Of a stretch of 64,000 nt of DNA, positions 48,250 to 48,723 are shown piece by piece. A program made the translations under genes and the position numbers. Source of the DNA: an uncultured Chlamydiae bacterium (lineage in GTDB: Bacteria > Chlamydiota > Chlamydiia > Chlamydiales > JAJFMB01); NCBI GenBank assembly GCA_963696295.1, contig CAVOJR010000001.1, positions 288,001 to 352,000 on the forward strand, in the 5' to 3' direction. The notes under the pieces are model-generated. The model saw only the letters and a list, made by a program, of their open reading frames with translations. It was not told the origin of the DNA and did no database searches. The first letter of the stretch is position 1, and each line of letters starts with the position of its first letter.

Positions 48250-48723
48250 TCACTGTAAAAGCTCTATTTTCCGTTTTAGAGACCTGACTTCATTTTTTAA
48301 CGCCTGGTTTTCAAGGGCCAACTTTTCAATTATTTCAACGGCGTTTGCCAAATTTATTTTTAATTCCCTCTTTTCTTTTAGCTGTAGAGAAATGCATACC
48401 CTTAGGTTATTATTCCTATTTCTTAAATTATCCACCTCTTTTTTCATGGAGTCCAGTTTTGCCTTGGCTCTTAGTCTGCAAAGTCTCCACGCCTCCCTTT
48501 TTTTGGCCTTCGCCTCTTCGGTCCTGGTATCCTGCTCTTTAACCGCAGAGGCAGTCTGTTGCCATTCCGGAATGGGAGGCTCCAAGACGCGCTCTTCCTC
48601 ATAGATGATTAGTATTTCTGGGTCATCAATAGGGAATAGTGGAACTTCCTTAGCAGAGGCTTCCTCAGGCGGCCAAGGGACAAAATGCCCAAAATAATCT
48701 AGATTAAGAAAATTTGTATTCAT
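48250..48723 (-). CDS. bZIP-like protein (basic region plus long leucine zipper)
   Basis: KKREAWRLCRLRAKAKLDSMKKEVDNLRNRNNNL aligns without gaps to the Jun/ATF bZIP register. Confidence 0.65.
   Translation of the reverse strand: MNTNFLNLDYFGHFVPWPPEEASAKEVPLFPIDDPEILIIYEEERVLEPPIPEWQQTASAVKEQDTRTEEAKAKKREAWRLCRLRAKAKLDSMKKEVDNLRNRNNNLRVCISLQLKEKRELKINLANAVEIIEKLALENQALKNEVRSLKRKIELLQ

Follow-up and report, generated by a model that had tools for sequence, protein, structure and literature searches.

A bZIP-like orphan protein of an uncultured chlamydia and an apparently undescribed chlamydial protein class with canonical bZIP basic regions

The DNA analysed here, which we call the window, is a stretch of 64,000 nucleotides from an uncultured chlamydia, a member of a bacterial group found inside the cells of eukaryotes. 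Its genome assembly (G000) comprises 3.43 Mb in two contigs, and the window corresponds to G000:C1:288001-352000. Proteins encoded by genomes of its order carry NCBI names from Protochlamydia and Chlamydiales, by which we count it among the environmental chlamydiae. On its minus strand, at 48250..48723, lies an intact open reading frame (ORF) with an ATG start that encodes 157 amino acids, exactly where the preliminary description of this DNA had placed it. We list it as a bZIP-like orphan gene on the basis of the ORF call, the codon score and homologue searches. It is flanked by a convergent 95-aa ORF, which follows a gene for an M32 carboxypeptidase, and, upstream and on the same strand, by a 296-aa orphan. 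The GC content of the gene is 41.6%, versus 47% for the chromosome. Its codon score of 0.023 is the best among the six frames and falls inside the range of long genes (mean 0.086, 5th percentile -0.016), yet it is equalled or exceeded by 27% of 1,161 shadow ORFs. Regarding signals around the gene, a weak sigma-70-like promoter match (48733..48761, minus strand, 9 of 12 matches) ends 10 bases before the ATG. Sites with 9/12 matches occur six times in the region, with 2.1 +/- 1.6 expected by chance, and we would not count this weak resemblance as evidence for function. The hairpin found 3' of the stop codon was not significant (z -1.29; 27 of 200 shuffles were equally good).

Other parts of the window also deserve a description. 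At 43670-45978 lie a tRNA-Ser(CGA) gene and, after it, a gene for an AbiEi-like antitoxin and a partner gene, the latter fragmented into several ORFs. This stretch sits between brnQ and the M32 peptidase gene and, since these two genes adjoin each other in genome G002, has the appearance of an insertion at the tRNA gene. On the minus strand, a 260-aa ORF at 51151-51933 consists of a hydrophobic unit in two copies and matches no NCBIfam family, while its 130-aa single-unit paralogue at 52038-52430 (32-38% identical) matches no Pfam family. Besides, the plus strand encodes at 41169-42263 a protein with a Zeta-toxin-like P-loop kinase domain (PF06414, 25.6 bits, above the cut-off).

The 157-aa protein falls into three segments, all given here by their minus-strand coordinates. 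Residues 1-53 (48565..48723) are acidic, aromatic and Pro-rich, with a net charge of -10, seven Phe, Trp or Tyr and nine Pro, and are modelled as disordered (pLDDT 44-57, no helix); they are a candidate secretion signal combined with a putative activation-domain-like segment. Residues 70-89 (48457..48516) form a basic region of net charge +7 in bZIP register, as aligned both to c-Fos and to the chlamydial profile A1 presented below. Residues 90-157 (48253..48456) form a leucine zipper of 10 heptads, according to the heptad table and to the helix and dimer models. Both the acidic, Pro-rich N-terminus and the extended zipper had been announced in the preliminary description.

We set the register with the c-Fos alignment obtained from a search of PDB sequences, which puts K75 at -18, A78 at -15, W79 at -14, C82 at -11, R83 at -10 and M93 at +1. 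K75 occupies the place of the invariant Asn(-18), and W79 stands at a position where all 17 chlamydial rows of A1 have Ala, so that the two substitutions read from the sequence at the outset, Asn to Lys and a base-contacting Ala to Trp, hold. The invariant N-x7-R/K motif of bZIPs is absent, with K75-x7-R83 in its place, and because of these two changes the protein is not a canonical member of the bZIP family. Position -14 is variable among eukaryotic bZIP subfamilies. The first heptad d position, M93, comes 10 residues after R83 (R83-x9-M93), which is the canonical bZIP spacing. A second bZIP-like register, derived from an alignment with MafG, was dropped, as its Asn-to-Cys spacing is one residue off.

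The d positions of the zipper read M L L Q L A L L L L in one unbroken register, with Leu or Met at eight of the ten; Asn is found at a positions 104 and 139, and the g-e' pairs include four attractive and two repulsive ones. In a single-sequence structure model, residues 54-156 make one continuous helix in which the basic region runs into the zipper, as it does in bZIPs, with a mean pLDDT of 93-98 for each 10-residue block from residue 71 onward. Two copies of residues 55-157, modelled together, gave an in-register parallel homodimer with a/d contacts that scored 0.60, versus 0.02 for the best of three controls; the runs agreed in at least 97% of the contacts, with pLDDT values of at least 86. 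Of 30 solved pairs, 21 come up to the mark that we used for this score, and of 23 single chains none does; the success of the model may reflect likeness to solved zippers.

To relate the protein to known families, we compared it with profile, sequence and structure collections. The preliminary description had proposed a search with the two Pfam bZIP families as a check, and this came out negative: bZIP_2 (PF07716) gave 12.9 bits against a gathering cut-off of 22.3 and bZIP_1 (PF00170) 11.2 against 27.6, with other coiled-coil families on top (DUF3450 and HALZ outscored both). The bZIP domain alone reached 12.8 (PF00170) and 15.4 bits (PF07716), still under the cut-offs, and NCBIfam gave nothing above cut-off for the protein. 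From 5.8 billion clustered proteins, with 71 candidates scored, we recovered only the protein itself. Among 1.84 billion representatives we found itself and a C-terminal fragment, P0002, which is 100% identical over residues 93-157, shares the same C-terminal end and is the sole outside record. The genomes of 60 relatives held no convincing homologue (ten gave coiled-coil or stop-containing matches, E 0.016-0.26), and neither of the two other genomes searched from the family of the source genome gave a match. Viral contigs contained no homologue and metagenome contigs did not contain the DNA pattern of the gene.

When residues 65-125 were searched against 177,635 PDB sequences at E<=10, the only match was c-Fos (E 0.39), and the best PDB match of the whole protein was IFT81. 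The fold search gave no match at E<=0.001 and only generic helices, which is uninformative because the protein is a single helix. In the ESM Atlas, the nearest neighbours were bZIP clusters, with a first match of 0.91 (173 shared features, recognition 2677) on a scale where 0.9 is reached by 4-10 of 100 shuffled proteins. All ten of the best family-bearing matches belonged to one family or clan, bZIP, and the zipper alone retrieved bZIP clusters at 0.77-0.81.

We then looked at Chlamydiales at large. Of 401 genomes searched, seven had a match above the cut-off of PF07716 and 15 one above that of PF00170, many of the latter through zipper-only matches. Alignment A1 holds 17 basic regions from 11 genomes, the 157-aa protein being left out; its Asn(-18) and Ala(-14) columns, the two substituted in the 157-aa protein, are invariant. 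A1 matched CREB (E 1.9e-9), followed by GCN4, ATF-2 and Jun. At E<1e-5 it matched 13 of the 401 genomes, 11 of them training genomes and two held out, as well as three of 25 further genomes, all of one family. In total, canonical basic regions are present in 16 of 426 Chlamydiales genomes (19 proteins, three families), a count made on a sample of genomes that are related to one another. The statement that bZIPs are a eukaryotic factor class, with which the preliminary description had started, needs amending in view of these canonical basic regions. Left out of the class count were eight weaker genomes (E 1.4e-4 to 9e-3), four with internal stops, four without the motif, as well as G260, G366, G425, zipper-only Pfam matches and short shadow frames in L084 and L091. 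G216:C68 was excluded as well, as this contig looks like a eukaryotic contaminant.

The class loci are L025 (G393), L026 (G386), L027, L028, L030, L032, L041, L055, L058, L073, L081, L083, L085, L087, L103, L153, L154 and L155. The canonical basic regions stand in a bacterial gene context, among neighbours that we take, from their sequences, to be genes for a LigD-type polymerase, umuC, an ADP/ATP translocase, lnt and miaB. Class loci of one lineage have neighbour genes in common, which argues against contamination, although G216 has a eukaryote-looking contig elsewhere. Regarding architecture, some members have two to three basic regions and many have a weak zipper, and they keep N-x3-A-x3-R. 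L026 and L030 carry two to three basic regions without a zipper, L085 holds three paralogues inside 7 kb, and L025, L153 and L155 have clear zippers. In genus g50 (L028, L027, L073 and L103), a helical-repeat-like protein carries the basic region as a fusion in G192; in G216, G256 and G049 the region is split from, or adjoins, a similar ORF.

One class member, P0010, is PNK_0243 (WP_059059799.1) of Ca. Protochlamydia naegleriophila, encoded on a 2,885,090-base contig that is a complete chromosome. Databases automatically name it 'bZIP transcription factor', and the supplement of the genome paper (Table S6, PMC5010888) lists it as a hypothetical protein of this named, amoeba-grown species. P0008 (WP_068468171.1), from Ca. 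P. phocaeensis, belongs to the class, like P0009. Searches with the alignments A1 and A3 yielded few proteins of eukaryotes (P0012 and P0017), too few for a tree, and we claim no donor. A bacterial genome-wide scan with one class member gave only its own record among the matches listed.

Using these proteins as a reference, we asked how the 157-aa protein relates to them. HMMER with A1 gave no match in the window's genome at E<=10, and hhalign of the protein against A1 gave a probability of 5% (E 0.0076). BLASTP tied it to only one of 16 class proteins (E 0.006), and no neighbour gene is common to its ORF and the class loci. With an ungapped 40-column profile of A1 that spans basic region and zipper, the 157-aa protein ranked first among 11,705 ORFs, at 18.8 bits against 13.9 for the next, and this rank was stable over four pseudocount settings. 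A score of 18.8 bits was reached by none of 11,705 reversed ORFs, by nothing in five locally shuffled proteomes and by one of 5,000 local shuffles of the protein; it is below 15 of the 17 leave-one-out scores and below all five held-out members (38.7-46.1 bits). Over nine column windows, the protein ranked first in six and 2, 6 and 18 in the others, with a constant register wherever it was first. The weakest window is the basic region alone (rank 18 of 11,705), whose score 196 of 5,000 helix shuffles reach. A 22-row profile (the 17 rows and five added) gave 23.8 bits, with the next ORF at 8.3. Finally, among the 56 zipper-bearing proteins of the genome, the basic region of the 157-aa protein scored 9.7 bits and the next -11.7, a gap of 21 bits.

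The class and the 157-aa protein are alike in their order, a Lys/Arg-poor and often acidic/aromatic N-terminus followed by the basic region, and differ in that the 157-aa protein surpasses the others in its zipper and falls behind them in its basic region. At most one Lys or Arg is found in residues 2-26 of 18 of the 19 members, versus 20% of the ORFs of the genome. A joint acidic/aromatic N-terminal criterion, with thresholds set post hoc, is passed by the 157-aa protein, by 12 of the 19 members and by 95 of 2,852 ORFs; none of the three class members found last passes it. Only three of the 2,852 ORFs join such an N-terminus with a zipper. Another of these three encodes 236 aa (G000:C1:955806-956516, minus strand; L012:1381-2088) and has an Asn/Phe-rich acidic N-terminus, a Pro-rich middle, a short basic cluster and a leucine zipper. 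It matches bZIP_2 at 14.6 bits through its zipper part only, has no N-x7-R and ranks 1,168 with the profile; from its sequence, it is possibly a more degenerate bZIP-like protein.

One could argue that the 157-aa protein is an orphan of generic coiled-coil type, perhaps secreted as a scaffold or adaptor, and that its basic stretch is similar to that of a bZIP by chance. Sub-threshold Pfam bZIP scores with other coiled-coil families on top, the negative HMMER and hhalign results with A1, the lack of a homologue, IFT81 and generic helices as structural matches and a zipper that by itself already draws Atlas bZIP clusters are all in line with this. We nevertheless hold it to be unlikely, given the genome-wide first rank with its empty nulls, the distance to the other 55 zipper-bearing proteins, the exact spacing from R83 to the zipper, the rarity of ORFs combining N-terminus and zipper, and the existence of real bZIP-like genes in Chlamydiales. 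The likeness to bZIPs beyond a generic coiled coil, proposed in the preliminary description, is upheld by the profile rank, the Atlas neighbours, the c-Fos match, the register and the comparison of zipper proteins. According to these results, the 157-aa protein is likely to be a true bZIP-like design, and descent from the chlamydial class or separate acquisition would both fit.

Regarding function, the explanation that we favour, tentatively and with the balance just short of even, is that the 157-aa protein is a diverged member of the environmental-chlamydial bZIP-like class and acts much as a eukaryotic bZIP factor does, inside the host cell. It would be exported through the type III system by means of its acidic N-terminus, the basic region would provide for entry into the host nucleus, and the homodimer would grip DNA. 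Owing to Lys in place of Asn(-18) and Trp in place of Ala(-14), the site read would be other than AP-1/CRE, or specificity would be relaxed. The acidic/aromatic region would attract co-activators of the host, and host transcription would change as a result. The presence of canonical basic regions in other Chlamydiales makes such a mimic more plausible. As to the substituted Asn, the literature reports, as a rare natural variant, the change to Lys in bZIPs of legumes, maize, barley and castor bean (PMC4676100), other substitutions in Phytophthora bZIPs (PMC4046829) and, for Zta(N182S), the binding of a new DNA motif with binding not lost (PMC13228511).

A protein of bZIP origin might instead have lost DNA reading and act as a dominant-negative sink for host bZIPs, in the manner of CHOP or HBZ, or as a protein hub like K-bZIP. 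Two of what we take to be the five base-contacting positions of bZIPs are changed in the 157-aa protein, one of them to the bulky Trp, which speaks for such a loss. HBZ, according to a part of PMC7412551, is without the conserved Asn and Arg and its DNA binding has not been seen, whereas the same source describes K-bZIP as binding promoters despite an atypical basic region. The 157-aa protein retains its net charge of +7, Arg-10, Cys-11 and Ala-15 and has a long self-complementary zipper, with four attractive g-e' pairs, paired Asn and a modelled homodimer. For these reasons we take a homodimer of altered specificity to be a likelier reading than a dominant-negative partner, and we regard loss of DNA reading as improbable.

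The proposed export calls for a secretion system, and genes for type III secretion are present in this chlamydia, which is in line with the secreted mimic of the preliminary description. Both sctR and sctN are intact in the window's genome, while the only sctV (FHIPEP) match, at G000:C1:256006-258188 (plus strand; L119/L120), is broken up into three reading frames, within a type III operon that is in other respects typical of chlamydiae; G002, G179 and G316 each have sctV in a single frame. When 181 genes were compared with relatives, six rows showed frame changes, of which two are sctV and one is presumably dnaK, and in-frame stops were found in an sdhA-like gene and in an ATPase copy. The breaks near G000:C1 676000-678600, 1175993 and 1943124-1944353 affect what we take to be dnaK/grpE, sdhA and an ATP synthase subunit copy. 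Since other conserved genes are also broken, a sporadic assembly error is the likelier cause of the sctV split, and the whole suggests that the assembly carries sporadic consensus errors. Codons 75 and 79 of the 157-aa gene are known from this assembly alone, P0002 covering residues 93-157.

The protein might also act inside the chlamydia itself, as a dimeric DNA- or RNA-binding protein. Secretion of the 157-aa protein is a prediction and sctV is split in the assembly, both of which would suit such a role; we judge it quite improbable, as a patchy, lineage-specific class (16/426) and an activation-domain-like N-terminus would fit effectors rather than core regulators, and as the sctV split may be an assembly error like the other breaks. 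Chlamydial eukaryote-like proteins have been described to carry functional type III signals (PMC4209131). Least probable is that we see a remnant that decays or is not expressed, or that assembly errors have distorted the reading: the gene is an orphan whose codon score overlaps shadow ORFs, in an assembly with frameshifts and stops in conserved genes and with an outside record limited to residues 93-157, but the 157-codon frame is intact between convergent and tandem neighbours, the 10-heptad register is unbroken, P0002 is identical to its very end, and it takes two base changes to turn an Ala codon into that of W79.

Our strongest result concerns the wider class of chlamydial proteins with canonical basic regions, which apparently has not been described before; its 19 proteins are better experimental targets than the 157-aa protein of the window. 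Part of PMC4046829 describes bZIPs as exclusively eukaryotic, and canonical basic regions in 16 chlamydial genomes challenge this view, whatever the protein of the window proves to be. We found no publication on these chlamydial proteins, and no sign of a bacterial bZIP among the papers listed, in a search that lay outside most subscription journals and all bioRxiv supplements, so that they may have been mentioned before, perhaps in a domain table. The bZIP term was absent from the searched supplement files of chlamydial genomics papers, and the main text of the review PMC7819608 contains neither 'bZIP' nor 'leucine zipper'. Our data suggest that the class consists of unstudied bacterial proteins that may steer host gene expression. 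With PNK_0243 on a complete chromosome, it becomes testable whether protist symbionts reprogram host transcription directly via DNA-binding mimics.

The 157-aa protein is not a formal member of the bZIP family, yet it probably works like one, and it would add a natural bZIP with rewired base-contacting residues. A bolder proposal, to which we give somewhat less credence than to the favoured explanation, is that acquisition of eukaryotic bZIP DNA-binding modules has occurred repeatedly in environmental chlamydiae, which would inject them to serve as true transcription factors of the host; the 157-aa protein would be a re-specified member that reads a site unused by host bZIPs. If true, viral bZIP mimics would have a bacterial counterpart here, and TAL effectors would be joined by a second kind of bacterial effector that acts as a transcription factor.

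By comparing the 157-aa protein with known systems, its likeness to eukaryotic bZIPs (PF00170 and PF07716; CREB/ATF, AP-1) is found in the basic helix that runs into a zipper with canonical spacing, in Ala-15, Cys-11 and Arg-10, in Asn at a positions, in an acidic N-terminal region and in the parallel dimer, modelled here. It differs from them in being bacterial, in its Lys at -18 and Trp at -14, in its sub-threshold Pfam scores, in its 10-heptad zipper and in having no detectable homologue. GmbZIP80 and PvbZIP67 of legumes and variants of Phytophthora sojae also have Asn(-18) replaced, by Lys in the legumes (PMC4676100 and PMC4046829, both in part); these belong to the nuclear genes of eukaryotes and fit the family in other respects, and Trp at -14 is not described in the same parts of the two papers. 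The viral mimics Zta, K-bZIP, HBZ and MEQ are likewise bZIP-like proteins encoded by parasites, some with degenerate basic regions (PMC7412551, in part), and differ in being viral and made inside the host cell, with no secretion step. Nucleomodulins such as TAL effectors, which mimic host activators (as stated in a section of PMC7819608), and the chlamydial NUE and SinC have folds unrelated to the 157-aa protein and are alike in the proposed mode, as type III-secreted proteins that act in the nucleus.
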